NCBI GenBank assembly: GCA_016713115.1 | Contig: JADJPU010000001.1 | Span: 923,762-987,761, forward strand | Source of the DNA: Cellvibrionales bacterium | Lineage (GTDB): Bacteria; Pseudomonadota; Gammaproteobacteria; Pseudomonadales; UBA7239 | Direction of reading: 5' to 3' | DNA: 64,000 nt | In this document: positions 9,261-49,305 of the stretch, one piece after another | How positions within the stretch are numbered: the first letter of the stretch is position 1 | Layout: each line of letters opens with the position of its first letter | Program-made: the position numbers and the translations under genes | Notes under the pieces: model-generated | Database searches by the model: none | Told to the model about the DNA's origin: nothing | The model's input: the letters and a program-made list of their open reading frames with translations, nothing else

Positions 9261-12200
9261 AATTTTGTTTCACTCACGGTTGTTGCCGCTGCTTTGTTGT
9301 TGCGCGGCAATGTACTGCGCCACAGCTCACCGCTGCTAAAACACTGCCAACCCCAGCGGCACCACGCCATCATAGAGAACACCAACCACAGCGACCACAA
9401 CAGCATGGCCGCGCGGTACACCCACATCGGCACCGAGACTACCCACGCCTGCGGCAGTACCGCGCCGCGATCTTGATACCACAACAGTTGACTGATCGTG
9501 GATTGATTGCCCACAACTTGCATCTCTGGCGAAGACAGCAGGCTGGCGGGGATAGTGCCTACCAAACTGCCCAGTGCCAGCACGCTCAGAATCACCAAAA
9601 CCACCTGCGTCAGTTGCAGATTACCGCAGCTCCAGCCAGCGGTGTTTGCCTTGCGCCGGTATGCCATAGCCACAAACCACGCCACCACCAACACGCTGCC
9701 CACGGCATTGACCGTACTCATACCCAACCCCAACAACACCCACTGCCAAGTAGCCACGGGCGTGACGCCGCTGCGACCGAGCACTATCGCCACCAACACC
9801 ATCACCGTTAACACACCCCAGTACAACAGCGCGGGACCCATCAATGGGCCGCCCACCGCCAACAACCAGCGACCCTCCGGCATCTGCACACTGAGCTGGA
9901 TATTGTTGAGCGGCTCGTGGAGCTGCGGTTGCGGTGTGGTGATACGCCAGCCCATGTCCGTTTCTTGTCGCCAGCTCACATCCAGCCGCTGACTGCCTGG
10001 GTGCAGGGGCAGTTTCAGTTGTGCATCAGGCAGAGCCGGATTGCTCTGCTCCACGCCGTCTATCGCCACCCGCTGCAATTTGGCACCGACGGGCAAGCTC
10101 AGCGGCAATTCGCCGCCCTGACTGCTGCGCACTTGCAGGCTTAGGCTCGTATCCACCGAACGCGCACCTGGGCGGTAATCCAAATTCACCGACTCCACTG
10201 TGCGCGTGCTGCCTGCCACACCCTGCGGTCTGCTGATCTCGGCACTCAAGCTTTCGCCCGGCCACGGTTGCCACACAGGCATAACGGCACTGGCGCTCTC
10301 TTGTTTGACAGGGTTCAAACCACTGAACGCCACATGCCAGATCGGGGCGATATCCCACTGCCACACCTCGATCCACGACACCGCTTTCGCCGCCGTCAAG
10401 TTCAGAGTTGCCGCTGGCTTGAGCGTCGCCGTCCAAGAGAAGGTCTGGGCGTCGGGCGCGATCACCACCTGCACGAGACCGTCGCGCACAACCACGCCGT
10501 CCGTGAGAACGGCCTCGCTGAGTAGCAAAGGAATGGCGAGATTGATTGCACCCACAGCGGGTGCAATGCGCTCCACCGTGGTTTGCACCTGCCAATCCAA
10601 CCCCAACATCAAGCGCCGCGTGACGCGCACAAAAGGCGGTGCCGTATCTGGAAGTAAGCGCGCACTCTCGTTGCCTGCTTTTTCTGTTGGGGCATTGCGC
10701 GACAACTGCAAGCTATTGCCTGGGATGCGCCCCTCGCTCAAACCGGAGATTTGCCAACCCTCGGCACTGGCGCTGATGTTATGTGCCGACATAGAGAAAG
10801 GCAGTTGCAGGGCATCGCCCGCCACTTCGCCTTCCAGCACCACACTGTGGCTGCCCGCCGTCACAGCCAACCACAGATGCCCATTTTCATCGCGACGCAG
10901 GCGCTGTGTGGGCATGCCGTCCACCAACACCGCGCGCGGTTGCCACTGCTCCGCCGCTGGCAGCGGCACGGCGACCTCAATTTGTGCATCAATTTGCAAC
11001 TGGATACGCAGGACATTGCCACTGATCTGCACCTGCCCGCGATTCAGAGCCGCACACTGCGGCGCACAATCAGGCGCGCGCGTGAGGCGCTGCTCCAATT
11101 CATCCAACATCGCTTTGCTAGGGAAAGCGGCATTGGTCTCTTGCGCCCACACCGGCTGGCCTTGCAGCAACAAACCCGCCAGCAACAGCACCGGTGCCAC
11201 CGCTTTGCTCGCCGCGAGTTTGCGCCAAGCCGCGTTCGGCCACGCAGCGCGCAATAGCAACAACGCAAAGGCAAATGCTAACAACACTGAAGCCAAACGC
11301 CATATTTTATGAAGTATTGGCGATAGTAAGTACAAACGCACAGTTTGATCTTGCAGCACGGGACCGCTCCAATACAGGCTGACCGTCTGCCAGCGCCACG
11401 CCGGTTCGCCAGGGCCAGTTTGCACTTGCGCACTGGGGTCGTAGCCGCTGCTAGGCTCCTGCGCTGGCTTGGTCGCACGCTTCATCTTGCTGGGATAATC
11501 GGCGCTCTCTGCTCTGCGAACCGCCGGCGCCGCTGCAGGTATGGCTTCCATGGCAACTTGCGCACCGCCCACCATATCGTCTGCCACTTGCATCGCCGCA
11601 CCTATCACACCGCTCTGTGTCTGTGCACCACCCTGCTGAATCGTCGCGGCGCGCCCCAATTCCAACTGCGGATAGATAGCGCTGCGCGCCTGCTCCACGG
11701 CGAAGTTCAGCAACAGCAAGGTCAGCAACAGCAACACCACGCTGTTGACTGCAGCGATCACCTGCCGGAAGCGCCCCGCCGGCAGCGCGCGCAACAAGCC
11801 CGTGCCGATCAAAGCAGCCAACCACAGAAACACAGGTGCCTGCCCTGCATGATAAGTGAGCATCAGCGCCAACAAAGCCACCACACCACCACCGACACCG
11901 AGCAACCGCCAACTGGCTGCCGCCACAATCAGCACCAAAAAAATTGCCCACAAATTCCAACGCGCCAACCACGAGCCAGCGGCGCTGTCGGCGCCCTCGG
12001 CGTGCAGCAACAGCCAGCCGGGGGGCAGGTACAAATTGGCGGATACGCTGTTCATCTCGCGCTGCCAAGCAGTGATGGGAATAGCTGTGAACTGCGCCAA
12101 ACGGCTGACACTGAGCAGATTCAAAGCTCCGGCACGCAACTCCACACCGGCTTCGTTTTGTTGACTGTCCAAGCGCGTCACTAGCTGCGGCTCGCCGTTT

Positions 12201-13390
12201 ACCTCTACACGCCCCAAGGTTTGCGCGGGCGCGGCAGAAAAGCGACTGGCCTGTCGCAAGCTGCCCGACACCACATCGCGACTGGTCATGCCGCTGCCGT
12301 CAAAATCTAGCCACAACTCGCGCCGCAGTGACAGCGCATCACTGGCGGTATCACCCAGCTGCGCTACATCTCCACGCTGGGTTTCGGTCAGAGTCAGTGT
12401 GTCGTTCGCCGTCAACAACCACGCGGGCGCTTGTCGCCATACCGCCGGCATATCGGTTTGCGAAGGATCCAGTGCCGTGGTGCTTGCAGGGGTCACTTGG
12501 CGCAACTGACGATCCGCCTGCCACGACCACACTTCTTCAGCGGGCCAGCTGTCGTCCAGCTTTTTAGGGCTGAAACTTGCGGGCTGGCCTTCTGCGCGCG
12601 CGCGCAGCACCAGCTCCCACTCACCGGCGCGCAGTTGCACACGCAAACGGCCGTCCGCTTCGATGCGCGCGGGCAGCGGAGTATCCAAGGCCAGCGGCAC
12701 AAAACCATCCAACAAAAATTGACCGAGTAGCACTTCACGGTCACGACCGGCTACGCGCAGACGCAACACCGTTTCCATTTGCAAGGGAATACCGTCTTGT
12801 ACTTGGCGAAACACTTGCACGGCGAGGGTATCCGCCACCGTCACTGGCGCGCGATTTTCACCAAACAATAAATAACCCTGTGCGTCGATGGAAGGCTGCG
12901 CTACGGGTTTGCCCTGCACGGTGAGCGCCAGCAGACCGGTACCCGCCGGCAGAGCCAAACGCGTGGGCAGCGCATCCCAGCGCATTACACCTTGCAGTTG
13001 ATGTTCACCGGCTGGTAACAACACCGAGGGTGCACCGTCGTGTTCCACCACCTGCGCCGGTTTTTTATCCACTAAAACATCTTGCGGCCACTGCTCAACA
13101 TCACCAGGCAGTGTCACCCACCCCTCGCGATAGAGCTGCCAGCTCTGCGTAAACAAAGCACCGCGCTCATCGACCTGCAGCTGCAACTGCCCTGGCCAGC
13201 GACAAAAGCGCTCGCCGAGTTCGGCGTATTGCGGCGGGCAAGCGAGATCTTTGTGTGCCTCCAACACCCAAGCGCGCCACGGCTCCAAAGCATCAGGCAC
13301 CGCAGCTGGCACAGCGCGAACACTGCCGCACACCATTGAAAAAACCGTTAGCAAAAAAAATAATGAGCAGAGTTTTTTAATGCCGTGCAT
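9257..13390 (-). CDS. 1,377-aa bipartite envelope membrane protein, unknown function
   Basis: Long ORF. I place the start at ATG 13390 (MHGIKKLCSLFFLLTVFSMVCGSVRA, signal-like), preceded by AAGGAG with a 6-nt spacer. The upstream 24 codons of the track ORF overlap the preceding gene. There are two large hydrophilic regions, each followed by a cluster of TM helices. Confidence 0.7.
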   Translation of the reverse strand: MHGIKKLCSLFFLLTVFSMVCGSVRAVPAAVPDALEPWRAWVLEAHKDLACPPQYAELGERFCRWPGQLQLQVDERGALFTQSWQLYREGWVTLPGDVEQWPQDVLVDKKPAQVVEHDGAPSVLLPAGEHQLQGVMRWDALPTRLALPAGTGLLALTVQGKPVAQPSIDAQGYLLFGENRAPVTVADTLAVQVFRQVQDGIPLQMETVLRLRVAGRDREVLLGQFLLDGFVPLALDTPLPARIEADGRLRVQLRAGEWELVLRARAEGQPASFSPKKLDDSWPAEEVWSWQADRQLRQVTPASTTALDPSQTDMPAVWRQAPAWLLTANDTLTLTETQRGDVAQLGDTASDALSLRRELWLDFDGSGMTSRDVVSGSLRQASRFSAAPAQTLGRVEVNGEPQLVTRLDSQQNEAGVELRAGALNLLSVSRLAQFTAIPITAWQREMNSVSANLYLPPGWLLLHAEGADSAAGSWLARWNLWAIFLVLIVAAASWRLLGVGGGVVALLALMLTYHAGQAPVFLWLAALIGTGLLRALPAGRFRQVIAAVNSVVLLLLTLLLLNFAVEQARSAIYPQLELGRAATIQQGGAQTQSGVIGAAMQVADDMVGGAQVAMEAIPAAAPAVRRAESADYPSKMKRATKPAQEPSSGYDPSAQVQTGPGEPAWRWQTVSLYWSGPVLQDQTVRLYLLSPILHKIWRLASVLLAFAFALLLLRAAWPNAAWRKLAASKAVAPVLLLAGLLLQGQPVWAQETNAAFPSKAMLDELEQRLTRAPDCAPQCAALNRGQVQISGNVLRIQLQIDAQIEVAVPLPAAEQWQPRAVLVDGMPTQRLRRDENGHLWLAVTAGSHSVVLEGEVAGDALQLPFSMSAHNISASAEGWQISGLSEGRIPGNSLQLSRNAPTEKAGNESARLLPDTAPPFVRVTRRLMLGLDWQVQTTVERIAPAVGAINLAIPLLLSEAVLTDGVVVRDGLVQVVIAPDAQTFSWTATLKPAATLNLTAAKAVSWIEVWQWDIAPIWHVAFSGLNPVKQESASAVMPVWQPWPGESLSAEISRPQGVAGSTRTVESVNLDYRPGARSVDTSLSLQVRSSQGGELPLSLPVGAKLQRVAIDGVEQSNPALPDAQLKLPLHPGSQRLDVSWRQETDMGWRITTPQPQLHEPLNNIQLSVQMPEGRWLLAVGGPLMGPALLYWGVLTVMVLVAIVLGRSGVTPVATWQWVLLGLGMSTVNAVGSVLVVAWFVAMAYRRKANTAGWSCGNLQLTQVVLVILSVLALGSLVGTIPASLLSSPEMQVVGNQSTISQLLWYQDRGAVLPQAWVVSVPMWVYRAAMLLWSLWLVFSMMAWCRWGWQCFSSGELWRSTLPRNNKAAATTVSETKL

Positions 13391-13403
13391 AGTGTTCTCC
13401 TTT

Positions 13404-15113
13404 TTATTCATTTTTTGACGGATAAAAATCCGCTGACAAATAACGCACAAACCACGAATCATTTCGCCCCATAAATTGCCAACCCGCCATGTAGCCAGGA
13501 ATACTTTTGCCAGCCACTTTCACATCCGCATGCAGCGTTGCCAGCAACACATTCGACACACCAGAAAACGCACTCGGCAACAATAGCAACAGCAACAAGC
13601 CCGCCCGCCAATACGCGCCAGCCGACCACAACGCCCGCAGAATCGCCAGCAGCACTAGCAATACACCAAAATAAATTGCAGATGAAGATCGCACCATAAG
13701 GTCGTTATACACGCCGTAGTACACGCAAGACAATACCACCGCAGAGACAAACACCGCGACGGCAAACACAACCAGACTCTTATCCAGCCAACGCCGATAC
13801 AGCACCACCACCAATGCGTATAAACACCAGCTCTTCAACAAAAACAGCAAAAAAATCACTTTGTCGATTTTCAAAAAAGGCAACACACCATACGGCTGAT
13901 CACTAACAGAAACACTCGCGTAGTAAACACCCAACACACCCAGGACACTCACACCGACCAATGCCGTCAGCCACCCATCTTTGTTACTGCCGCAATAGAA
14001 AAATTGCCAAGCTAACAAAATCAAAACCAGTGGCAACAAGCCGAGCGCAATCATCGGCGCGTAATACGCCAACAGCGCGCAAGCAAATAAAATTGTGACA
14101 ACTTTTTGTTGATAGGCTGCTTGGCACAACAAACCTACTACCAACCAACCGGCCACTGTTTGATGCGGCGCCCACAACAGCGAAGAAGCTAGTGAAGTGA
14201 AGTTACCAAACCACATACCTTGCACTAAATCAGTCGCCGGCCAAAAATCCAACATTGGCGGCGCACTTAACCATGTCAGCAGCACAGACAACAGCGTTAT
14301 CGGCGCGTCCAGTTGACCCCACGCATATGGATATTGGCTGATCTGCAACAGCAAGCCGACTACCACATCCCAGCCGCCAAAAAACACCACCCCAATTGCC
14401 GCTACCCACGAACGCACACGCGTCAACAGCGCCATCATGCGCAGCGCCAGCCAGCATCCCGCCAACAACCAAAGATGTTGCGCCAACATGGCTGCCGATA
14501 TTCCCGCTATTTTTCCTATCAAAGCGGGCCACAAGTAGTAGCCGGCGTACTGCACCAACAGTTGAAAACTGCCATCGGCATTTGCATAGCTGACAGGCCA
14601 TGTGTAGTGAATCAAATCCAACAAACGCCCGTTATGCATTACATAATCTGACGATTGATAACCATAACCCCCTGCGCCGCACACGCTCACCCACGCCAAC
14701 ACAACGAGATAACCCGCAAGACCTGCCGAGTTATTTTTTTCTGATGCGTTTTTTTCTGGCGCTGCGCACTGACGAATACTCCACCACAACGCAGCGCCCC
14801 ACACTGCGGTGAATACCAGCGCCCACACTGGACGCAGCCATGTAGCAGAAAAAAGCAATAACGGACTGCCCAACCATAGCAGTGCTATTTTCCACGGTGA
14901 AAAGCGCTCGGCAATCAACCAATACAGCGCACGGTAAAAAATGGCATGTCCTAGCACATACACTAGCACTTCCTGCCAACCGGCTACGGTTTGATACAAA
15001 GAGCGCGTTGCCAAGGCTATAAAAGCCATCCACCAAAACGGCGTGTCCAACGCCACGCGTAGCCATGCCTGCTGTGCGAATAGTCTATTAGCGCGCATCA
15101 TTGCTTCAGCCAT
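13404..15113 (-). CDS. polytopic inner-membrane protein, unknown function
   Basis: 569-aa ORF, hydrophobic almost throughout (more than 10 predicted helices) and Trp/Tyr-rich. ATG 15113 lies inside the last codons of ampG (8-nt overlap). Confidence 0.65.
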   Translation of the reverse strand: MAEAMMRANRLFAQQAWLRVALDTPFWWMAFIALATRSLYQTVAGWQEVLVYVLGHAIFYRALYWLIAERFSPWKIALLWLGSPLLLFSATWLRPVWALVFTAVWGAALWWSIRQCAAPEKNASEKNNSAGLAGYLVVLAWVSVCGAGGYGYQSSDYVMHNGRLLDLIHYTWPVSYANADGSFQLLVQYAGYYLWPALIGKIAGISAAMLAQHLWLLAGCWLALRMMALLTRVRSWVAAIGVVFFGGWDVVVGLLLQISQYPYAWGQLDAPITLLSVLLTWLSAPPMLDFWPATDLVQGMWFGNFTSLASSLLWAPHQTVAGWLVVGLLCQAAYQQKVVTILFACALLAYYAPMIALGLLPLVLILLAWQFFYCGSNKDGWLTALVGVSVLGVLGVYYASVSVSDQPYGVLPFLKIDKVIFLLFLLKSWCLYALVVVLYRRWLDKSLVVFAVAVFVSAVVLSCVYYGVYNDLMVRSSSAIYFGVLLVLLAILRALWSAGAYWRAGLLLLLLLPSAFSGVSNVLLATLHADVKVAGKSIPGYMAGWQFMGRNDSWFVRYLSADFYPSKNE

Positions 15114-16386
15114 GATCGAATAACTTGTCTCTCATGTTTTTCATCACCCAGAAAAATAAAACTAATGCCGGAACGATGCTCAGTGTTGAAAAAACAAAAA
15201 AACCTTTGTAGCCAAAACTGCCCACCAAGAAACCAGAAAATCCGCCCACCAATTTTCCTGGCAGCGCCACCAGCGAACTGAACAATGCGTACTGTGTAGC
15301 GGTGTACTCGCGACTCACCAAGGATGACAACCACGCCACCGCCACCGTGCCGAGAAAACCGCCCGATAAATTCTCGCCGGTGATGACCGCAGTAAACACC
15401 GCGACATTGCCAGGGAAAATAGCCAAAAAAATGTACAGCAGATTGCTCACAGCGCCGAGCAACATTGCCAACAACAAACTGCGCTGCACGCCCATCCACG
15501 CCACTACCGCGCCGCCAATAAATGCACCGCCGATACCCACCCACACGCCGTACAATTTTGAAACAGCGGCGATATCGGTTTTGCTAAAACCGCTGTCGAG
15601 ATAAAACGGAAACGCCATCACACCGATCATTTGATCGGGAATTTTGAACAGCCCCATAAACAGCAACAGCAACACACCCAGCCAGCCGCTGTAGCGTTGA
15701 AAAAAATCGCGAAACGGGCCGATCACACCATCGCTGAGTACCGCGCGCCAAGAAGACGAGCGCACGGTCAGCGTTTCCGGTTCGCGCGCCGCCAAGGTGG
15801 CCAGCATCACCAACAGCACCGCACAGGCCATGGCGCTGTACACCAGCGACCACGCGATGTGATCCGCCAACAGCAAAGCCAGCGCACCCGATACCAACAG
15901 TGCAATACGATAGCCAAGCGTCGCGGTGGCAGCCAGCGCGCCCTGCGCCTCCAAGGGTGCAATCTCGATGCGATAGGCGTCGATCACCACATCCTGTGTG
16001 GCACCGGCAAAAGCCACCAAGGCCGCAGCCACAACAAACCACGCAAAAGAACCGCTGGGAGTAATCCATGCCATCCACAACAGTGCTGCTGCCAGCAGCG
16101 CCTGCGCCAACAGCAACCAACTGCGGCGCTGGCCGAGTTGCTCTAAGAGAGGCAGACGCAAACTGTCTACCGCCGGCGACCACAAAAATTTGAAGGAGTA
16201 GGTCAACCCCACCAAGCTGACCAAGCCAATCTGCTCCAGTGACACCGCGTTATCTTTCAGCCAGGTGGAAAGCGTGCTGCCCACCAACAAAAACGGCAGG
16301 CCGGAGGCAAAACCAAAAAAGAACATCACCAAAGCAGCGGGCTGTGCAAACGCTTGGCGTAATGTGAGGCGGGGAGGCGAATCCAT
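15106..16386 (-). CDS. ampG: AmpG-family MFS permease (muropeptide transporter-like)
   Basis: 426 aa. The N-terminus ...FFFGFASGLPFLLVGSTLSTWL...IGLVSLVGLTYSFKFLWSPAVD... parallels E. coli AmpG (LGFASGLPLAL..GTLQAWM...FSLVGQAYVFKFLWSPLMD). It has a 12-14 TM profile. Confidence 0.85.
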   Translation of the reverse strand: MDSPPRLTLRQAFAQPAALVMFFFGFASGLPFLLVGSTLSTWLKDNAVSLEQIGLVSLVGLTYSFKFLWSPAVDSLRLPLLEQLGQRRSWLLLAQALLAAALLWMAWITPSGSFAWFVVAAALVAFAGATQDVVIDAYRIEIAPLEAQGALAATATLGYRIALLVSGALALLLADHIAWSLVYSAMACAVLLVMLATLAAREPETLTVRSSSWRAVLSDGVIGPFRDFFQRYSGWLGVLLLLFMGLFKIPDQMIGVMAFPFYLDSGFSKTDIAAVSKLYGVWVGIGGAFIGGAVVAWMGVQRSLLLAMLLGAVSNLLYIFLAIFPGNVAVFTAVITGENLSGGFLGTVAVAWLSSLVSREYTATQYALFSSLVALPGKLVGGFSGFLVGSFGYKGFFVFSTLSIVPALVLFFWVMKNMRDKLFDHG

Positions 16387-39350: not shown

Positions 39351-40838
39351 ATGCGAGACGATGCGCACGAACTTGGATTAATTATCGACTCACATACGCC
39401 ACTTATTATTATTCAATCACACGAAGAAACGCGCGTGTTGGATTTGCTGATGCAGGCAAGCAACACGCGCACTTTGCCGATGCAAGTGTGGTCTGTCACG
39501 GATGGATTGCGCGCTATGGGCTTCAGCATCGGAGAGACCGAGGGTGAACAACTTACAGATCTCGATGCCGCCCTGCTCGCCATCAAACGCACACGCAGTA
39601 AAGGATTGTTTGTACTGTGTGACACGCAAAGTTTTTTAAACAATGAACACCCAAAAACCGTGCGTTTGTTAAAAGATGTCTTACTGCAATATGACAGTAT
39701 CAATCGCACTGTCGTACTGCTAGGTCATGAAGTACCGCTGCCGCCAGCACTGCGCCGCTACGCTGCCGAGTTTGAATTATCTACTCCCAGTGACGACGAG
39801 ATACTTGCTATCATTCGTGAAGAAGCGAGTGCTTGGTGTCAAAAAAATCAGCAGGCCCGCATCAAAACTGACAAGCTCGCACTAGATCGCATCATCATGC
39901 ATTTGCGCGGCTTACCACCAGCTGATGTTCGCAAACTGGCACGGCAATTTATTCATGTTGATGGCATCATCTCTCATCAAGATCTTCCGTTAATTAGCAA
40001 AAATAAAATGCAAATACTGGATGTGGATGGTGTTCTGCAATACGAATACAGCACAGAGAGTTTTGCACAAGTCGCCGGCTTAGAAAATTTAAAGCACTGG
40101 CTTAATAAAAGACAACACGCCTTCCTAACGCCATCCAATACCGTAGATACACCAAAAGGTATTTTGTTGCTCGGCGTACAAGGAAGCGGTAAAAGTCTCG
40201 CCGCCAAAGCGGTAGCTGGTTTGTGGAGCTTGCCATTATTGCGCTTAGATTTTGGCGCCCTATACAACAAATACTACGGTGAATCTGAAAAAAATCTGCG
40301 CGAATCTTTAAAGCTCGCTGACAACATGGCGCCTTGCGTATTGTGGCTTGATGAAATTGAAAAAGGCATCGCAGGAAAGAACGATGATGATGGCACCAGC
40401 CAGCGTGTGCTTGGTACTTTTTTAACATGGCTGTCTGAAAGGCAGCGCCCTGTTTTTATCGTGGCAACTTCAAACAATATTGCCAATTTACCGACTGAGT
40501 TAATTCGTAAAGGCCGTCTCGATGAAATCTTTTTTGTCGACCTTCCAAAGCCTAAAGTGAGAGAAGAAATTTTTGCGATCCATCTCATCAAACGGAAGCA
40601 CGACCCAAGTTTGTTTGATTTGCCGATACTTGCTGCGGCATCCGAAGGTTTTTCTGGCGCAGAAATTGAGCAAGCGATAGTGGCAGCCACCTACTCCGCA
40701 CAAGCTCAACAACAACAGCTGCAAACATCAGCAGTTTTGGATGAACTATCACACACCAAACCCATTGCCATTGTGAAGGCAGAAAGCATCACCGCCTTGC
40801 GCGCTTGGGCAGAAGATCGCACCGTCTCTGATGATTAA
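39351..40838 (+). CDS. AAA+ ATPase (classic AAA clade) with an uncharacterised ~240-aa N-terminal domain
   Basis: Walker A GVQGSGKS, Walker B VLWLDEIE, second region of homology ATSNNIANLPTELIRKGRLDEIF, and a C-terminal lid ...FSGAEIEQAI. The ATG lies 1 nt after the trpE stop. Confidence 0.8.
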   Translation: MRDDAHELGLIIDSHTPLIIIQSHEETRVLDLLMQASNTRTLPMQVWSVTDGLRAMGFSIGETEGEQLTDLDAALLAIKRTRSKGLFVLCDTQSFLNNEHPKTVRLLKDVLLQYDSINRTVVLLGHEVPLPPALRRYAAEFELSTPSDDEILAIIREEASAWCQKNQQARIKTDKLALDRIIMHLRGLPPADVRKLARQFIHVDGIISHQDLPLISKNKMQILDVDGVLQYEYSTESFAQVAGLENLKHWLNKRQHAFLTPSNTVDTPKGILLLGVQGSGKSLAAKAVAGLWSLPLLRLDFGALYNKYYGESEKNLRESLKLADNMAPCVLWLDEIEKGIAGKNDDDGTSQRVLGTFLTWLSERQRPVFIVATSNNIANLPTELIRKGRLDEIFFVDLPKPKVREEIFAIHLIKRKHDPSLFDLPILAAASEGFSGAEIEQAIVAATYSAQAQQQQLQTSAVLDELSHTKPIAIVKAESITALRAWAEDRTVSDD

Positions 40839-40865: not shown

Positions 40866-40894
40866 AAAAAAGGGCATCAATTGATGCCCTTTTT
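40866..40894. terminator. bidirectional rho-independent terminator between convergent genes
   Basis: Perfect palindrome AGGGCATCAATTGATGCCCT (40871-40890), flanked by an A run upstream and a T run downstream. Confidence 0.75.
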
Positions 40895-40908: not shown

Positions 40909-43900
40909 TCAGTTGCCGCTGGCGATTCTGCCGGAGATGATCTCCACAAAACCCACATCCTTGATATTCTTCAGCTTGGCTGGTTTAGCCGGGTTCTTCT
41001 GCACCCACATCTGCGTATCTGCTTTTGGCGCTGAAGTGATGATGTCGCTGTAACCATCCAAGTTCACATCACCACCGTTTGCCAAGTAGAGCCCACGGTT
41101 ATCTTTCGCGCGCACACCCAGCACCGGCTCGTCGATTGATACGCCGGTTGCGCCGTTCAACAAATATACAGCACCTGCATCTTTCAGCACTTTGCCTTTG
41201 GTTTTGGGTGGCACGGGCGGCAGCGTTCTGTCGCGGCCTGGCGCACCAGCCACCACATCCAGCTGGCCATCGTTGTCGATGTCGCCGCCGGCCGCCACGC
41301 TCCAACCCAAGCGATCACCTGCGGCTTCTCCGTTTTTCGCGAGAATACGCACACAGGGGATGCCTGCATTGACACAGGAGTAGCCGTATACCGCACCCGC
41401 CTGTTTCATCGGTTTGCCGGTAGTGACATTGGTCACGGTGTGGCGGTAAGCGCCCACGACGATATCTGCCTTGGTATCGCCGTCGAGATCGCCCGCACTG
41501 GCAACGCTATAACCAAACCAGTCACCGGCGTTTTCACCACTGACACGCACCCACTCGGTGCCGTCAGCGCCCGAGTACACCACGGCGGCACCTGCGTCTT
41601 TCTTACCGGCAACATCTGCTTTTGGCAAGCCAACCAGCACATCTGCATGACCGTCACCATCTACATCTCCGGCACCTGCAACCGCACTGCCCAAACTGTC
41701 GCCAGCGGTGTCGCCGCTGATAGGGAACAACGAGGAAGCAACATCGCAGGCATTGGCACTCGAATCAACCGCTGCCGCCAAATCTGCCCCTGAACACACC
41801 AGAGCGCGACCAGCGTCTTTCAGCGGCTTGCTGTCGACAACCGCAATATCCGCTTTCGGCACACCGATCACTACATCGGGGTTGCCATCATTGTCCGTGT
41901 CGCCAGCGTTTGCCACCGACCAGCCCAAGTTGTCGCCCGCCGCCGTACCTTGCGCACTAGCCATCAGCGCGCCGGTTTGACCGTTAAACACATACACCTT
42001 GCCAGCGTCTTTCAACACTTTGATTTTACCTTCAACAGTGATGGTCACATCGGCTTTCGGAGCGCCGACGATGATATCGGCATAGCCATCATTGTTCACA
42101 TCCGCACCGGCCACGCTATAACCGAACCAGTCGTTGCTCTTCTCGCCCGTCAGCGGCGCAGCGCTAAATAGCTCGCTGCCATCGCGACCGGAGTACACAT
42201 ACACACGACCGGCAGATTTCAGCTTTTTGGTGCTCGGGGGCAAGGGTTTATCCCACAGATGGGCGCCAACCACGACATCATTGATGCCATCGTTGTCCAC
42301 ATCACCGGCATTGGCCACTGAGATGCCGAAGGTGTCTTTCTTAAACTCGCCCCATTTGCGCATCAACACACCAGGATCCGCGTCATAAGGATCCGCATCG
42401 CAGGCATCACCTACACCGTCACCGTCCGTGTCTTTCTGATCTGCATTAGCAACAGCAGGACAGTTGTCTGCGTTGTCACCTACACCATCGCCATCATCGT
42501 CGGTAGTTTCGGTAGGGTCATTCGGGAACGCATCGCAATCGTCGCCCACGCCATCGCCATCCGTATCAGTCTGTGCAGGGTTGGATACCGCTGGGCAGTT
42601 GTCGGTCGCGTTGTCCACGCCATCGCCGTCGGTATCACCCGTTGGCGTGCTGTCGCAAGCGTCGCCCGTGCCGTCACCGTCGGTGTCGGTCTGTGTTGGG
42701 TTCGCGACCGCTGAGCAGTTGTCGGCATTTTCATCCACGCCGTCACCGTCGGTGTCGCCGTTCGGGGTGCTGTCGCACGCGTCGCCCGTGCCATCGCCAT
42801 CGGTGTCAGTCTGGGCAGGGTTTGCGACCGCCGGGCAGTTGTCGGTGGCGTTGTCTACGCCGTCACCGTCGGTGTCGCCGGTTGGGGTCGTGTCACAGGC
42901 ATCGCCAATCGTGTCACCGTCGGCATCTTCTTGACCAGGGTTTGCTACTGCTGGGCAGTTGTCCGTCGCGTTGTCCACGCCGTCACCGTCGGTGTCGCCG
43001 GTCGGGGTCGTGTCGCAAGCATCACCAATCGTGTCACCGTCGGCATCTTCTTGACCAGGGTTTGCTACTGCTGGGCAGTTGTCGGTGGCGTTGTCTACGC
43101 CGTCACCGTCGGTGTCGCCGGTTGGGGTCGTGTCACAGGCATCGCCAATCGTGTCACCGTCGGCATCTTCTTGACCAGGGTTTGCTACTGCTGGGCAGTT
43201 GTCCGTCGCGTTGTCCACGCCGTCACCGTCGGTGTCGCCGGTCGGGGTCGTGTCGCAAGCATCACCAATCGTGTCACCGTCGGCATCTTCTTGACCAGGG
43301 TTTGCTGCTGCTGGGCAGTTGTCCGTCGCGTTGTCCACGCCGTCACCGTCGGTGTCGCCGTTCGGGGTGCTGTCGCACGCGTCACCGGTGCCATCGCCGT
43401 CGGTGTCGGTCTGCGTTGGGTTGGAGACCGCTGGGCAGTTGTCGGCATTTTCATCCACGCCGTCACCGTCGGTGTCGCCGTTCGGGGTGCTGTCGCACGC
43501 GTCACCGGTGCCATCGCCGTCGGTGTCGGTCTGCGTTGGGTTCGCGACCGCTGGGCAGTTGTCGGCATTTTCATCCACGCCGTCACCATCGGTGTCGCCG
43601 TTCGGGGTGCTGTCGCACGCGTCACCGGTGCCATCGCCGTCGGTGTCGGTCTGCGTTGGGTTCGCGACCGCTGGGCAGTTGTCGGCATTTTCATCCACGC
43701 CGTCACCATCGGTGTCGCCGTTCGGGGTGCTGTCGCAGGCATCGCCCACGCCATCACCATCGGTGTCGGTCTGGGTCGGGTTCGCGACTGCTGGGCAGTT
43801 GTCGGCATTTTCATCCACGCCGTCGCCGTCAGTATCGCCGTTCGGGGTGCTGTCGCAGGCATCGCCCACGCCATCACCATCGGTGTCGGTCTGGGTTGGG

Positions 43901-46900
43901 TTCGCGACCGCTGGGCAGTTATCGGCATTTTCATCCACGCCGTCGCCGTCGGTATCGCCGTTCGGGGTGGTATCACAGGCATCGCCCGTGCCATCACCGT
44001 CGGTGTCGGTCTGGGTCGGGTTCGCGACTGCTGGGCAGTTGTCAGCATTGTTGTCGACACCATCACCGTCGGTATCACCGTTCGGTGTACTGTCGCAGGC
44101 GTCACCGATGCCGTCCAGATCCGTGTCTTCTTGCAGCGGATTTGCCACAGCCGGACAGTTGTCTGACAGGTTATCAATGCCATCACTGTCGGTATCACCG
44201 TTCGGTGTACTGTCGCAGGCGTCACCGATGCCATCCGCGTCGGTATCAGTTTGCGTCGGGTTCGCAATCAGCGGACAGTTGTCACTCAAATTATCCACGC
44301 CGTCAGAATCGGTATCACCATTCGGTGTACTGTCGCAGGCGTCACCGATGCCGTCCACGTCGGTATCAGTTTGCGTCGGGTTCGCAATCAGCGGACAGTT
44401 GTCACTCAAATTATCCACGCCGTCAGAATCGGTATCACCATTCGGTGTACTGTCGCAGGCGTCACCGATGCCGTCCACGTCGGTATCAGTTTGCGTCGGG
44501 TTCGCAATCAGCGGACAGTTGTCACTCAAATTATCCACGCCGTCAGAATCGGTATCACCATTCGGTGTACTGTCGCAGGCGTCACCGATGCCGTCCACGT
44601 CGGTATCAGTTTGCGTCGGGTTCGCAATCAGCGGACAGTTGTCACTCAAATTATCCACGCCGTCAGAATCGGTATCACCGTTCGGTGTGGAGTCACACGC
44701 GTCACCGATACCGTCCAGATCCGTATCTTCCTGCAATGGATTCGCGATCAGCGGACAGTTGTCGCTGTTGTTATCGATGCCATCAGAATCGGTATCACCA
44801 TTCGGTGTCGAGTCACACGCGTCACCGATGCCGTCCACGTCGGTATCAGTTTGCGTCGGGTTCGCAATCAGCGGACAGTTATCTGTATTGTTATCAATGC
44901 CATCACCGTCGGTATCGCCATTCGGTGTCGAGTCGCACGCGTCACCGATACCATCGGCATCGGTATCTTCTTGCAGCGGATTCGCGACAGCCGGACAGTT
45001 GTCTGACAGGTTATCAATGCCATCACTGTCGGTATCACCGTTCGGTGTACTGTCGCAGGCGTCACCGATGCCATCCGCGTCGGTATCGGTCTGCGTCGGG
45101 TTCGCAATCAGCGGACAGTTGTCTGACAGGTTATCAATGCCATCACCATCGGTGTCACCGTTCGGCGTGCTGTCGCAGGCGTCACCGATGCCATCCGCGT
45201 CGGTATCGGTCTGCGTCGGGTTCGCAATCAGCGGACAGTTGTCTGACAGGTTATCAATGCCATCACCATCGGTGTCACCGTTCGGCGTGCTGTCGCAGGC
45301 GTCACCGATGCCATCCGCGTCGGTATCGGTCTGCGTCGGGTTCGCAATCAGCGGACAGTTGTCTGACAGGTTATCAATGCCATCACCATCGGTGTCACCG
45401 TTCGGCGTGCTGTCGCAGGCGTCACCGATGCCATCCGCGTCGGTATCGGTCTGCGTCGGGTTCGCAATCAGCGGACAGTTGTCTGACAGGTTATCAATGC
45501 CATCACCATCGGTGTCACCGTTCGGCGTGCTGTCGCAGGCGTCACCGATGCCATCCGCGTCGGTATCGGTCTGCGTCGGGTTCGCAATCAGCGGACAGTT
45601 GTCTGACAGGTTATCAATGCCATCACCATCGGTGTCACCGTTCGGCGTGCTGTCGCAGGCGTCACCGATGCCATCCGCGTCGGTATCGGTCTGCGTCGGG
45701 TTCGCAATCAGCGGACAGTTGTCTGACAGGTTATCAATGCCATCACCATCGGTGTCACCGTTCGGCGTGCTGTCGCAGGCGTCACCGATGCCATCCGCGT
45801 CGGTATCGGTCTGCGTCGGGTTCGCAATCAGCGGACAGTTGTCTGACAGGTTATCAATGCCATCACCATCGGTGTCACCGTTCGGCGTGCTGTCGCAGGC
45901 GTCACCGATGCCATCCGCGTCGGTATCGGTCTGCGTCGGGTTCGCAATCAGCGGACAGTTGTCTGACAGGTTATCAATGCCATCACCATCGGTGTCACCG
46001 TTCGGCGTGCTGTCGCAGGCGTCACCGATGCCATCCGCGTCGGTATCGGTCTGCGTCGGGTTCGCAATCAGCGGACAGTTGTCTGACAGGTTATCAATGC
46101 CATCACCATCGGTGTCACCGTTCGGCGTGCTGTCGCAGGCGTCACCGATGCCATCCGCGTCGGTATCGGTCTGCGTCGGGTTCGCAATCAGCGGACAGTT
46201 GTCTGACAGGTTATCAATGCCATCACCATCGGTGTCACCGTTCGGCGTGCTGTCGCAGGCGTCACCGATGCCATCCGCGTCGGTATCGGTCTGCGTCGGG
46301 TTCGCAATCAGCGGACAGTTGTCTGACAGGTTATCAATGCCATCACCATCGGTGTCACCGTTCGGCGTGCTGTCGCAGGCGTCACCGATGCCATCCGCGT
46401 CGGTATCGGTCTGCGTCGGGTTCGCAATCAGCGGACAGTTGTCTGACAGGTTATCAATGCCATCACCATCGGTGTCACCGTTCGGCGTGCTGTCGCAGGC
46501 GTCACCGATGCCATCCGCGTCGGTATCGGTCTGCGTCGGGTTCGCAATCAGCGGACAGTTGTCTGACAGGTTATCAATGCCATCACCATCGGTGTCACCG
46601 TTCGGCGTGCTGTCGCAGGCGTCACCGATGCCATCCGCGTCGGTATCGGTCTGCGTCGGGTTCGCAATCAGCGGACAGTTGTCTGACAGGTTATCAATGC
46701 CATCACCATCGGTGTCACCGTTCGGCGTGCTGTCGCAGGCGTCACCGATGCCATCCGCGTCGGTATCGGTCTGCGTCGGGTTCGCAATCAGCGGACAGTT
46801 GTCTGACAGGTTATCAATGCCATCACCATCGGTGTCACCGTTCGGCGTGCTGTCGCAGGCGTCACCGATGCCATCCGCGTCGGTATCGGTCTGCGTCGGG

Positions 46901-48003
46901 TTCGCAATCAGCGGACAGTTGTCTGACAGGTTATCAATGCCATCACCATCGGTGTCACCGTTCGGCGTGCTGTCGCAGGCGTCACCGATACCATCCGCAT
47001 CGGTATCTTCCTGCAACGGATTCGCGACAGCCGGACAGTTGTCTGACAGGTTATCAATGCCATCACCATCCGTATCGCCATTCGGTGTCGAGTCACACGC
47101 GTCACCGATACCATCCGCATCGGTATCTTCCTGCAATGGATTCGCAACGAGCGGACAGTTGTCACTAGCATCGGCAATGCCATCACTGTCGGTATCTGGC
47201 GTTAATGTACCTGTCAGGAAAACGCCTTGATCGGCTGCTTCAGCCGGATCACAGTCAATGGATGAGCCCTGATCTGCCAGACCACCCACCCAGCACACGG
47301 AATCATTGGCAAAAGCACCACCACGGATGTGGGTGTCGATGTCATACGAAATAGTGAACTGCAAAGTAGCCGGGCCATTACCGGTAACAACAGCGCTATT
47401 GTTCTGGTTGATTGGTGTAGTGACAGAAGTGTTAAGCACACCGGTTGTTGGCAGCGCCAGACTTCCACTATCAAGCGTATCGCCAGACAGTGAAGTGGTA
47501 ACTGCTTTAGCTTCGATTCGCCTGTTGTTGCCGCCATTATCGACAGCCTGAATAATTCCCTTACGCAGAATGCCGAGATCAAGTTTCCAGTTGCCCGAAC
47601 CGGTGATATTCACAGTCACCAGATAACTGGGCCGATAGTAAAGATTGATGTTGATAGACACTTGTGACTTGGAACGCAACTGGTTCGCGTATCGAGAAGT
47701 AAACGTAGTACCGGTAAAATTACTGCTTGTGCTGGAATTCCACTCACTCCTGCCATTGGGAACGCTGAAAGCAGAATCATCCTTCCATGTGATACCAGGG
47801 CAGGCGCCTGCTGCAGGGCAATCCGGCTCTGGCGCAGTGTTATCTCCCCACGTACCCGCTGTATTGTTTGAAATAGTGAGGCCGGTTATTGCGGGAGCGG
47901 CACTGGCTAGCGGGCTGAACGCCAGCGCCGCCAGCAGCAATATGCCGTGCAAGACTGATTGGTTTGAAATGTGCGTGTTACCGGAAAACCAGGTAAGAAT
48001 CAT
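40909..48003 (-). CDS. giant secreted Ca-binding repeat protein: signal peptide + unknown N-domain + ~40 x 40-aa thrombospondin type-3-like units + seven FG-GAP repeats
   Basis: A single 2,364-aa ORF with signal peptide ...LLLAALAFSPLASA/AP. The repeat unit is DGDGIDNLSDNCPLIANPTQTDTDADGIGDACDSTPNGDT and variants (DxDxDGxxDxxD loops plus paired Cys). The C-terminal ~480 aa hold seven FG.SVA.AGD...DG..D...GAP motifs. Confidence 0.9.
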   Translation of the reverse strand: MILTWFSGNTHISNQSVLHGILLLAALAFSPLASAAPAITGLTISNNTAGTWGDNTAPEPDCPAAGACPGITWKDDSAFSVPNGRSEWNSSTSSNFTGTTFTSRYANQLRSKSQVSININLYYRPSYLVTVNITGSGNWKLDLGILRKGIIQAVDNGGNNRRIEAKAVTTSLSGDTLDSGSLALPTTGVLNTSVTTPINQNNSAVVTGNGPATLQFTISYDIDTHIRGGAFANDSVCWVGGLADQGSSIDCDPAEAADQGVFLTGTLTPDTDSDGIADASDNCPLVANPLQEDTDADGIGDACDSTPNGDTDGDGIDNLSDNCPAVANPLQEDTDADGIGDACDSTPNGDTDGDGIDNLSDNCPLIANPTQTDTDADGIGDACDSTPNGDTDGDGIDNLSDNCPLIANPTQTDTDADGIGDACDSTPNGDTDGDGIDNLSDNCPLIANPTQTDTDADGIGDACDSTPNGDTDGDGIDNLSDNCPLIANPTQTDTDADGIGDACDSTPNGDTDGDGIDNLSDNCPLIANPTQTDTDADGIGDACDSTPNGDTDGDGIDNLSDNCPLIANPTQTDTDADGIGDACDSTPNGDTDGDGIDNLSDNCPLIANPTQTDTDADGIGDACDSTPNGDTDGDGIDNLSDNCPLIANPTQTDTDADGIGDACDSTPNGDTDGDGIDNLSDNCPLIANPTQTDTDADGIGDACDSTPNGDTDGDGIDNLSDNCPLIANPTQTDTDADGIGDACDSTPNGDTDGDGIDNLSDNCPLIANPTQTDTDADGIGDACDSTPNGDTDGDGIDNLSDNCPLIANPTQTDTDADGIGDACDSTPNGDTDGDGIDNLSDNCPLIANPTQTDTDADGIGDACDSTPNGDTDGDGIDNLSDNCPLIANPTQTDTDADGIGDACDSTPNGDTDGDGIDNLSDNCPLIANPTQTDTDADGIGDACDSTPNGDTDGDGIDNLSDNCPLIANPTQTDTDADGIGDACDSTPNGDTDSDGIDNLSDNCPAVANPLQEDTDADGIGDACDSTPNGDTDGDGIDNNTDNCPLIANPTQTDTDVDGIGDACDSTPNGDTDSDGIDNNSDNCPLIANPLQEDTDLDGIGDACDSTPNGDTDSDGVDNLSDNCPLIANPTQTDTDVDGIGDACDSTPNGDTDSDGVDNLSDNCPLIANPTQTDTDVDGIGDACDSTPNGDTDSDGVDNLSDNCPLIANPTQTDTDVDGIGDACDSTPNGDTDSDGVDNLSDNCPLIANPTQTDTDADGIGDACDSTPNGDTDSDGIDNLSDNCPAVANPLQEDTDLDGIGDACDSTPNGDTDGDGVDNNADNCPAVANPTQTDTDGDGTGDACDTTPNGDTDGDGVDENADNCPAVANPTQTDTDGDGVGDACDSTPNGDTDGDGVDENADNCPAVANPTQTDTDGDGVGDACDSTPNGDTDGDGVDENADNCPAVANPTQTDTDGDGTGDACDSTPNGDTDGDGVDENADNCPAVANPTQTDTDGDGTGDACDSTPNGDTDGDGVDENADNCPAVSNPTQTDTDGDGTGDACDSTPNGDTDGDGVDNATDNCPAAANPGQEDADGDTIGDACDTTPTGDTDGDGVDNATDNCPAVANPGQEDADGDTIGDACDTTPTGDTDGDGVDNATDNCPAVANPGQEDADGDTIGDACDTTPTGDTDGDGVDNATDNCPAVANPGQEDADGDTIGDACDTTPTGDTDGDGVDNATDNCPAVANPAQTDTDGDGTGDACDSTPNGDTDGDGVDENADNCSAVANPTQTDTDGDGTGDACDSTPTGDTDGDGVDNATDNCPAVSNPAQTDTDGDGVGDDCDAFPNDPTETTDDDGDGVGDNADNCPAVANADQKDTDGDGVGDACDADPYDADPGVLMRKWGEFKKDTFGISVANAGDVDNDGINDVVVGAHLWDKPLPPSTKKLKSAGRVYVYSGRDGSELFSAAPLTGEKSNDWFGYSVAGADVNNDGYADIIVGAPKADVTITVEGKIKVLKDAGKVYVFNGQTGALMASAQGTAAGDNLGWSVANAGDTDNDGNPDVVIGVPKADIAVVDSKPLKDAGRALVCSGADLAAAVDSSANACDVASSLFPISGDTAGDSLGSAVAGAGDVDGDGHADVLVGLPKADVAGKKDAGAAVVYSGADGTEWVRVSGENAGDWFGYSVASAGDLDGDTKADIVVGAYRHTVTNVTTGKPMKQAGAVYGYSCVNAGIPCVRILAKNGEAAGDRLGWSVAAGGDIDNDGQLDVVAGAPGRDRTLPPVPPKTKGKVLKDAGAVYLLNGATGVSIDEPVLGVRAKDNRGLYLANGGDVNLDGYSDIITSAPKADTQMWVQKNPAKPAKLKNIKDVGFVEIISGRIASGN
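42841..43320 (-). repeat. 2 x 240-nt higher-order repeat (two-unit period) of a third subtype (…DNATDNCPAVANPGQEDADGDTIGDACDTTPTGDT)
   Basis: 42841-43080 versus 43081-43320 differ at a single position (43067 a versus 43307 g). Confidence 0.9.
44281..44640 (-). repeat. 3 identical tandem copies of a second unit subtype (DSDGVDNLSDNCPLIANPTQTDTDVDGIGD...)
   Basis: Lines 44281=44401=44521 and 44341=44461=44581. Confidence 0.9.
45061..46980 (-). repeat. 16 nucleotide-identical tandem copies of the 120-nt unit (1,920 bp)
   Basis: Line pairs 45061/45121 through 46861/46921 are letter-for-letter identical on inspection. Confidence 0.9.
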
Positions 48004-48052
48004 GCTGAGCCTGCGATATCTATGCTTATCCTTTGATCATCTCACAGGCCAA

Positions 48053-48078
48053 TGTAGTGGTCAAGTAAAACCGGACAC
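48053..48078. repeat. IS terminal inverted repeat (end facing the giant gene)
   Basis: See the mobile_element entry. On the minus strand it contains TTGACC (48059-48064) pointing outward. Confidence 0.85.
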
Positions 48079-48090
48079 GGGTTTAGGTTT

Positions 48091-49235
<1,145 letters not shown>

Positions 49236-49279
49236 TATGGAGCACCTCTGTATCGGGCAGCAGTTTACTGCCCATAAGA

Positions 49280-49305
49280 GTGTCCGGAATCATTAGACCA
49301 CTACA
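49280..49305. repeat. IS terminal inverted repeat (transposase-proximal end)
   Basis: See the mobile_element entry. Confidence 0.85.

Follow-up and report, generated by a model that had tools for sequence, protein, structure and literature searches.

Introduction

A single minus-strand gene in a 64,000-nucleotide stretch of DNA from a Cellvibrionales bacterium (assembly GCA_016713115.1, contig JADJPU010000001.1, positions 923,762 to 987,761; hereafter the window, with positions counted from its first letter) encodes a giant protein in which thrombospondin type 3 (TSP3) repeats are joined to an integrin-like propeller. What kind of protein is this, and what would a bacterium use it for? The function of TSP3 repeats in prokaryotes "remains elusive" (PMC6593220), and bacterial TSP3, FG-GAP, and cadherin repeats have been treated as Ca2+-binding adhesion modules (PMC2668756, PMC9957290). 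An earlier note, drawn from the bare sequence of the window, had singled out this open reading frame (ORF). Here we describe it as the member with the most repeats in a modular protein family, and our preferred reading, to which we give odds only slightly better than even (about 55%), is that its product is a Sec-exported, disulfide-bonded, and Ca2+-stiffened two-headed adhesin or matrix cross-linker acting outside the cell.

Results

A TSP3 array of 40 units next to a seven-bladed propeller

The gene occupies positions 40909-48003 of the minus strand as one uninterrupted ORF of 2,364 codons that starts with ATG and is closed by a stop codon at 40909-40911, just as the earlier note had read it. 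Its 2,364-residue product matched no database record in an exact-sequence lookup and gave matches only to the TSP_3 and FG-GAP families when scanned against Pfam. The mature protein has a calculated mass of ~233 kDa and an isoelectric point of ~4, and its 88 cysteines are all locally paired, with two in each TSP3 unit and four in each of the two end domains.

The center of the protein (residues 271-1875; 42379-47193, minus strand) is a TSP3 array of 1,605 residues with a strict 40-residue period and exactly 40 units, close to the count of about 40 between ~42385 and ~47196 that had been reported before. Each unit carries the two Ca2+ loops and two cysteines described then, in the form of one long motif (D.D.DG...DNCP..NP.Q.D) and one short motif (D.D.D..GD.CD), which add up to 39-40 long motifs, 40 short motifs, and 79 DxDxD[GT] cores at 25% aspartate and a net charge of about -420. 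The earlier note had proposed profile searches as a test of both domain assignments, and these returned clear matches for FG-GAP (4.9e-30, 6 stretches) and for TSP_3 (PF02412; E=0 and 1419.9 bits against a cut-off of 25, 40 stretches). Against sequences in the PDB, the array matches COMP (3fby, 1.2e-45) and TSP-2 (~1e-43) with residue-level alignment to their Ca2+-binding repeats, and it also aligns to thrombospondin-1 and more weakly to a bacterial OmpA protein (5wtl, 2.6e-6), which is the sole TSP3 protein of bacteria with a solved structure. Profile and alignment evidence thus identifies the units as bona fide TSP3 repeats. In TSP3 motifs, the chain wraps around Ca2+ ions, for which the disulfides are required. 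As had been suspected, the number of cores implies a capacity of many tens of Ca2+ ions, which would be ~80-160 if each motif bound one or two.

Two long frames are open on the plus strand opposite the array (42573-47168, 1,531 residues; 43319-47230, 1,303 residues). We take them to be by-products of repeat composition because they lie wholly within the repeats and because both selection and profile evidence fall on the minus strand.

A short linker (DPGVLMRKWGEFKKDT; 42331-42378, minus strand), conserved in the orthologs P0004-P0013, leads from the array to the C-terminal propeller (residues 1892-2364; 40912-42330, minus strand). These 473 residues contain seven FG-GAP blades by motif with a spacing of 59-78 residues, each with a DxDxDG-type loop (D.[DN].D[GT]..D), and the best sequence matches in the PDB are integrin alpha5, alpha4, and alphaV (1e-22 to 1e-17), which agrees with the single integrin-like propeller of seven motifs recognized previously. 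The protein terminates within blade 7 on a conserved strand (...GFVEIISGRIASGN) that is not hydrophobic. Scans of the protein with Pfam and NCBIfam found no further domain, anchor, beta-barrel, RTX repeat (HemolysinCabind), or sorting tag, in line with what had been seen by eye, and no match to an autotransporter barrel or to a PEP-CTERM, LPXTG, or GlyGly-CTERM tag; PEP-CTERM occurs only on other proteins that share the N-terminal domain.

The N-terminal domain and its relatives

Between the signal peptide and the array lies a domain of 235 residues (residues 36-270; 47194-47898, minus strand) with four cysteines and a combined Ser, Thr, and Asn content of 31%. The earlier note had not been able to assign this region, and we found no match in Pfam, NCBIfam, or PDB sequences either: the best profile matches, an antibody Fab heavy chain in the PDB (E=0.22) and "tail_200_repeat" in NCBIfam (E=0.03), are both noise. 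A word-indexed search of 5.8 billion clusters recovered only two relatives, and an exhaustive HMMER search over 1.84 billion representatives recovered 15 cluster representatives with E values from 3.6e-148 to 5.6e-06. In every family member examined, the domain directly follows the signal peptide. Its partners are TSP3 and FG-GAP in P0240, a complete protein of 986 residues, cadherin-like/Big_9 modules with DUF5122 and TSP3, or LamG in MshQ-like DUF6701 proteins (P0244, P0250) of which it forms the head, while other copies are stand-alone proteins of ~290 residues with a PEP-CTERM end (among P0243, P0246, P0247, and P0251), and P0248 contains the domain twice in tandem. Judged by domain composition, all these contexts are surface or extracellular ones. 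They suggest a surface module that is rare though widely distributed and that merits definition as a family.

AlphaFold (AF2) modeled the domain confidently only after HMMER had supplied the 15 relatives: three sequences gave a mean predicted local distance difference test score (pLDDT) of 34, whereas the alignment of 16 sequences gave an all-beta model with pLDDT 88 and a predicted template modeling (TM) score of 0.87. The domain is thus predicted to form a beta-sandwich. Foldseek comparison of this model with the PDB and with viral models found no fold-level neighbor (TM<=0.46), the best being Bd1399 (TM 0.35/0.46), itself a secreted protein whose elongated beta-sandwich is held closed by two disulfides. 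We did not assign the domain to DUF4360, to a carbohydrate-binding module (CBM), or to the C1q fold; CBM61, C1q/TNF-like, and phage matches all have TM scores below that of Bd1399. The ratio of nonsynonymous to synonymous substitution rates (dN/dS) of 0.03-0.05 shows that the domain is functional, and by sequence and model it is a new, undescribed extracellular domain family.

Could either end domain be catalytic, for example as a polysaccharide lyase or hydrolase, so that the secreted protein would act as an enzyme or a lectin-like degrader in which TSP3 does no more than link the parts? In other proteins, TSP3 arrays are joined to enzyme modules such as proteases, PA, PPC, and pectate-lyase-like ones, and CBM61 is among the weak structural matches of the N-terminal domain. 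However, no part of the protein matches a catalytic family in Pfam or NCBIfam, the propeller resembles the ligand-binding FG-GAP blades of integrins, and the CBM similarities (TM 0.15-0.29) are not significant, all of which makes an enzyme highly unlikely in our view.

A modular family with variable array length

Orthologs of the propeller (51-99% identity) all come from metagenome-assembled genomes (MAGs) of Pseudomonadales/Cellvibrionales and all end in ...GFVE[IV]ISG..., and several are named "integrin alpha" or "thrombospondin type 3 repeat-containing protein" at NCBI. Surveying orthologs and their repeat numbers, as the earlier note had advised, uncovered relatives at the same syntenic locus (purH-purD-kinase-gene-AAA-trpE) with 3, 21, and ~36 units alongside the 40 of the window. 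The shortest (L007) is a 927-residue gene with three TSP_3 stretches and a Big-like head, while the window's N-terminal domain is found in an intact ORF of ~1,600 residues with 21 units (L010) and in a sister strain (L003; 98.5% DNA identity in the propeller) whose gene of ~2,221 codons has ~36 units and one frameshift. Elsewhere, a paralog of 1,003 residues (L009) combines a DUF5122 propeller as head with two TSP_3 stretches, while 17 were counted in L012 and no fewer than 25 in L011, a Cellvibrionales copy that is truncated.

The order of head, TSP3 array, and propeller is also seen in complete smaller members, i.e., P0240, L007, and L009. Across the family, the numbers of Pfam TSP_3 stretches are 2, 3, 6, 17, 21, at least 25, and 40 (the ~36 of L003 were counted via DNA anchors), so that the 40 units of the window are the largest count among the proteins examined. 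Sequence comparison therefore defines a family of the form [exchangeable head]-[TSP3]n-[conserved Ca2+-loop propeller] with n from 2 to 40 that is confined to Pseudomonadales/Cellvibrionales. Such a wide spread of repeat numbers is easier to reconcile with a spacer than with a catalytic or structural core, which would be fixed.

The family also bears on the idea that the array itself is the functional part, serving to sequester Ca2+, nucleate carbonate or phosphate minerals, or cross-link anionic exopolysaccharide through Ca2+ while the heads are mere anchors. The aspartate content, the net charge, and the 79-80 Ca2+ motifs would suit such a scaffold, and the number of units is the fast-evolving parameter of the protein. 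Yet the precise TSP3 motifs with their paired cysteines, together with a ratio of nonsynonymous to synonymous differences (pN/pS) of 0.23 among unit types, speak for a defined fold rather than a generic acidic polymer, and no mineralization context is apparent among the neighboring genes. Moreover, members with just two or three units keep both heads, so that functional constancy lies with the heads rather than with the array, and we regard a pure Ca2+ scaffold as very doubtful.

Array remodeling and module exchange

At the DNA level, the 40 units are 53-100% identical and represent 22 types, one of which has been amplified 15-fold: units 3-17 (45154-46953, minus strand) are DNA-identical 120-bp repeats that extend over 1.8 kb, which points to recent amplification and makes this the part of the array with the least certain copy number. 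Since these 15 identical units are consecutive, the exact unit count depends on the assembly. In the sister strain L003, interior units are just 78-92% identical to any unit of the window, and a different type has been amplified 8-fold. From the different amplified types we conclude that the arrays are renewed through local amplification and loss of units, at a far higher pace than their flanks diverge. The differences among unit types are mostly synonymous, and the TSP3 motif itself is therefore under purifying selection. This holds in frame for all parts of the gene, with a dN/dS of ~0.1 in the propeller besides the values given above for the N-terminal domain, and the gene is maintained.

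Whole modules appear to move as well. Between the window and L010, synonymous divergence (dS) is 0.8-2.6 in flanking genes and 1.7 in the propeller but just 0.47 in the N-terminal domain, and the 5' untranslated regions are nearly identical, which indicates an exchange of the 5' module that plausibly occurred by recombination within the array. Rapid, strain-specific array remodeling with module exchange, as these comparisons suggest it, goes beyond what the earlier note had described, as do the new N-terminal domain family and the IS3 insertion shared with L005 (see below).

Two further sequences combine parts of different members, and either could be a natural recombinant through the TSP3 array or a chimeric assembly. 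P0008 (L004:1667-4174) joins an N-terminus like that of outer-membrane proteins and a different TSP3 subtype to the propeller of this family (73% identity). L005 joins a 5' half like that of the window (91% DNA identity) over a 100-N scaffold gap (3797-3896) to a propeller that is 51% identical. Both were left out of the evidence on architecture as possible chimeric assemblies. The copy in L003 (5506-12169 of a 691-kb contig) was called as two genes because of its frameshift, which lies where units are garbled and spaced 118 and 177 nt apart and is either an assembly or sequencing error within the array or the mark of a truly inactivated allele.

Signal peptide, insertion sequence, and possible promoter

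The first 35 residues (47899-48003, minus strand; MILTWFSGNTHISNQSVLHGILLLAALAFSPLASA with cleavage before AP) resemble a signal peptide by hydropathy. The Sec-type signal peptide proposed in the earlier note stands as far as the strong h-region and the AxA-type cleavage site (ASA before AP) are concerned, but the n-region of 16 residues is uncharged, without any Lys or Arg. The same N-terminus is found in L010 (with a TTG start) and in L005. L001, a relative with the same N-terminal domain, instead has a canonical leader (MLFRRAIRFSHLSRW...) with a positively charged n-region. Two alternative 5' ends thus exist, MILTWFSGNTHIS... without charge before the h-region in the window, L005, and L010, and that of L001. 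Homology between the window (47940-48052) and L001 (4380-4560) begins only inside the h-region, and the kinase gene upstream also has different 3' ends in the two.

An insertion sequence (IS) of the IS3 family (48053-49297, minus strand; orfA 48933-49235, orfB 48091-48930) lies 49 bp upstream of the ATG, bounded by terminal inverted repeats and accompanied by a TTG target duplication. It is missing in L010, L003, and L001, and L010, a related MAG, preserves the empty site (...AAAGAATTGGCCTGTGA...). The same element occupies the same site in L005, an independent metagenome scaffold with 91% overall identity and an intact 5' ORF, where the junction matches the window through both promoter-like hexamers described below and differs only nearer to the ATG. 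Upstream of the gene, these hexamers form the one strong sigma-70-like site (48036-48064, minus strand; TTGACC-17-(TG)GATGAT, recognized by its match to the consensus): the -35 element TTGACC lies within the terminal repeat of the IS3 element and the -10 element TG-n-GATGAT in native DNA. This arrangement suggests that the insertion may have created a hybrid promoter, which could drive the gene.

These features, together with the repeats, raise the possibility of an artifact or a decaying allele, i.e., a miscounted or chimeric array or a copy that is being silenced because an IS has entered its promoter and its n-region has been replaced. In favor of it, 1.8 kb consist of perfectly identical tandem units, the array of L003 is garbled and frameshifted, that of L005 contains a scaffold gap, and the window allele has the IS3 element at 49 bp and the uncharged n-region. 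Against it, the 7.1-kb frame is intact with 40 units in phase, other assemblies also contain long arrays (~36 units in L003, 21 in the intact ORF of L010, at least 25 in L011), the start and N-terminus are kept both in L010, which lacks the IS, and in L005, which has it, a promoter-like site is present at the IS junction, and purifying selection acts throughout. On balance, such an artifact or decay has little probability.

Relation to known systems

Both long bacterial TSP3 arrays and their fusion to FG-GAP propellers turned out to be widespread and not as rare as the earlier note had supposed. As many as 3,607 proteins match the array at E<=1e-30, fused to TIG, PA, PPC, PKD, subtilase, dockerin, FG-GAP_2, and other modules, and nine unrelated top scorers that we checked have 8-13 Pfam TSP_3 stretches in ~1,000-1,100 residues. 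In a word-indexed search for the largest arrays, the matches listed were all <=~1,130 residues long, which is apparently a property of the search and gives no readable upper bound. TSP3 and FG-GAP-type propellers are combined in both domain orders, e.g., in Spongiibacter sp. KMU-158, whose protein has weak, blade-level similarity to the window's propeller; such proteins use the FG-GAP_2 subtype, and orthologs of the window's own protein were already present at NCBI. Published arrays reach up to 26 TSP3 repeats in ice-binding proteins (PMC9957290), and giant Omnitrophota proteins are reported to contain "a large number" of them together with dockerin repeats. What is unusual here is the number of units and the three-module plan with a new head, in a type of protein that is known in databases but unstudied.

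Animal thrombospondins and COMP (3fby, 1yo8, 1ux6) share the alternating long (DxDxDGxxDxxDNCPxxxNxxQxD) and short (DxDxDGxGDxCD) motifs with paired cysteines, but their C-terminal lectin-like TSP_C domain, EGF repeats, and oligomerizing coiled coil are missing here by Pfam. Their repeat number is small and fixed (~7-8), and the repeats pack against the C-terminal lectin-like domain. In contrast, the window's protein has 40 near-identical units in a free-standing array, so that the repeat is common to both but the family is not. Integrin alpha subunits have seven FG-GAP blades with DxDxDG Ca2+ loops like the propeller described here, though in integrins such loops occur in only three or four blades rather than in all seven, and the thigh and calf domains, transmembrane segment, and beta-subunit are missing from a protein that ends at blade 7.

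Giant RTX adhesins of Gram-negative bacteria lack Sec signals and are nearly devoid of cysteines. With their BIg-type beta-sandwich repeats, C-terminal RTX, and type I secretion, they differ from the window's protein with its Sec-type leader, 88 cysteines, and TSP3 units but no RTX, and type I secretion genes are not among the neighbors (trpE, AAA ATPase, sensor kinase, purD/purH). Their Ca2+-rigidified repeat stalks, which are established (PMC7493085), may nonetheless serve as a working analogy in that MpIBP and LapA project terminal ligand-binding domains on a long, Ca2+-stiffened stalk. Other prokaryotic multi-TSP3 proteins, i.e., the ice-binding, Omnitrophota "dockerin-type", and Myxococcus Mts proteins, likewise have long arrays on surface or adhesion modules, whereas DUF3494, dockerin, and MYXO-CTERM are missing here. 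The NCBIfam profile for MtsC (NF047638) scored 1,344 bits and thus above its cut-off, yet this match was repeat-driven with 21 matches to profile positions 88-266 of 428 (the TSP3 region), and the C-terminus of the window's protein is a propeller blade without MYXO-CTERM. A match to the NCBIfam family "Omp28-related selenoprotein" was rejected as repeat-driven, too.

From its domain content, we conclude that the protein is not a thrombospondin, integrin alpha subunit, RTX adhesin, OmpA-family protein, autotransporter, or MtsC, and that only a few lineages of Pseudomonadales/Cellvibrionales have the three-part plan of a new beta-sandwich, a TSP3 array, and a Ca2+-loop propeller.

Proposed function

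In our model, the Sec machinery would carry the protein over the inner membrane, and the 88 locally paired cysteines would be oxidized in the periplasm, which is where disulfide-rich proteins fold. The protein would then be released or displayed via a route that is not encoded at the locus. The earlier note had left this route open, and we, too, see no feature of type I or type V secretion and no translocation device there; a type II-like route is our best guess because features of the other two are missing. In Ca2+-rich water, the 40 TSP3 units would wrap Ca2+ and turn the polyanionic chain into a long, stiff spacer, as modeled on thrombospondin, COMP, and the OmpA linker. For the latter (5wtl), a 2017 study by Dai and colleagues reports intra-repeat disulfide-dependent Ca2+ binding in its title. 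The spacer would hold apart two binding heads rich in beta structure, namely the beta-sandwich at the N-terminus and the seven-bladed Ca2+-loop propeller at the C-terminus; its length could be adjusted by gain or loss of 120-bp units, and its N-terminal head could be swapped between lineages.

The main competitor is a role inside the envelope, in the periplasm or at the inner face of the outer membrane, where the protein would act as a Ca2+ buffer or store or as a tether in the manner of OmpA-type linkers. The characterized bacterial TSP3 segments of OmpA (5wtl) and TraB consist of few units with an intra-repeat cysteine pair as here and link an outer-membrane beta-barrel to an OmpA-like (peptidoglycan-binding) domain, a position that is periplasmic. 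The Sec signal without any recognizable feature for outer-membrane export or anchoring and the extreme aspartate content and charge would fit this as well. However, neither a barrel nor an OmpA-like, peptidoglycan-binding domain is found in the window's protein by Pfam or NCBIfam, its array of 1,605 residues far exceeds the OmpA and TraB linkers and probably the width of the periplasm, relatives of its N-terminal domain are combined with PEP-CTERM, cadherin-like, and MshQ-like parts such as surface proteins typically have, and seven-bladed FG-GAP propellers are typical of extracellular binders. We therefore hold an envelope-internal role to be quite improbable.

Several points weigh against the extracellular two-headed adhesin or cross-linker that we prefer. 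Neither the gene nor its neighbors yielded a device for translocation across the outer membrane or for anchoring there, and TSP3 repeats alone are no proof of an extracellular site because the OmpA and TraB linkers are periplasmic. The signal peptide of the window allele has no positively charged n-region, and the IS3 element parts the native promoter from the gene. The N-terminal domain is without a confident structural relative (TM<=0.46), neither head has a ligand that could be named, and the number of units rests on assembly across a perfect repeat of 1.8 kb. For every member of the family, finally, function is argued from sequence and analogy.

A bolder version of our model would see the array as a length-tunable, Ca2+-switched molecular ruler, a floppy polyanion without Ca2+ and rigid with it, that is distinct from BIg and RTX stalks. 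By gaining and losing 120-bp units, populations could then adjust within short evolutionary times how far a bivalent adhesin reaches, its heads would be swapped between lineages that recombine through the array, the IS3 element would rewire its expression, and the N-terminal domain would be a new surface-binding fold common to PEP-CTERM and MshQ-like proteins. Taken as a whole, this picture is speculative, and we consider it unlikely to be right in all its parts.

Genomic setting

The gene is set among housekeeping genes, with ftsX, hrpB, trpE, and an AAA ATPase on one side and a 7TMR-DISM hybrid sensor kinase, purD, and purH on the other. An intrinsic terminator with a 12-bp stem and A-tract/T-tract flanks lies 15 nt past the stop codon (40867-40894, minus strand) and is shared with the convergent AAA-ATPase gene. 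With its own terminator and promoter-like site, the gene is thus a stand-alone transcription unit. A functional tie to the upstream kinase or the downstream ATPase was considered, but we claim no operon-level link because the adjacency is kept in syntenic relatives only and is missing at L012, where a transglutaminase-like gene lies upstream of the family gene, and at the paralog L009.

The ATPase neighbor (39351-40838, plus strand), a protein of 495 residues that begins 2 nt past trpE and adjoins it also in L003, L005, L007, and L010, has a C-terminal AAA+ module and an N-terminal region of ~260 residues without assignment; its NCBIfam matches to proteasome-activating nucleotidases, FtsH, and the anti-phage ATPase IteA are weak and far under the cut-off. 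Farther away, an ORF of 1,401 residues (9257-13462, minus strand) with a signal-peptide-like start, several strongly hydrophobic segments, and ~61% GC in part has no match in Pfam or NCBIfam. It lies next to genes for a patatin-like phospholipase (8070-9260), a 569-residue ORF without match (13404-15113), and a major facilitator superfamily transporter (15106-16386), and this region may represent an uncharacterized envelope system.

Implications

We know of no prokaryotic TSP3-repeat protein beyond the OmpA linker that has been studied, and the role of these proteins is an acknowledged gap. The family described here extends current understanding without overturning it, in that it belongs to a known but neglected class, and it comes with a new extracellular domain family, as defined by sequence, for which a confident model is available. 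If the array is indeed a Ca2+-stiffened spacer, it would be a compact, genetically tunable, and disulfide-stabilized Ca2+-binding polymer of possible interest for biomaterials. For the biology of these bacteria, the locus offers a natural series in which one propeller at one chromosomal site is combined with 3, 21, ~36, or 40 units and with different heads, which makes it possible to ask whether the length of such an array sets reach, Ca2+ dependence, or matrix properties.

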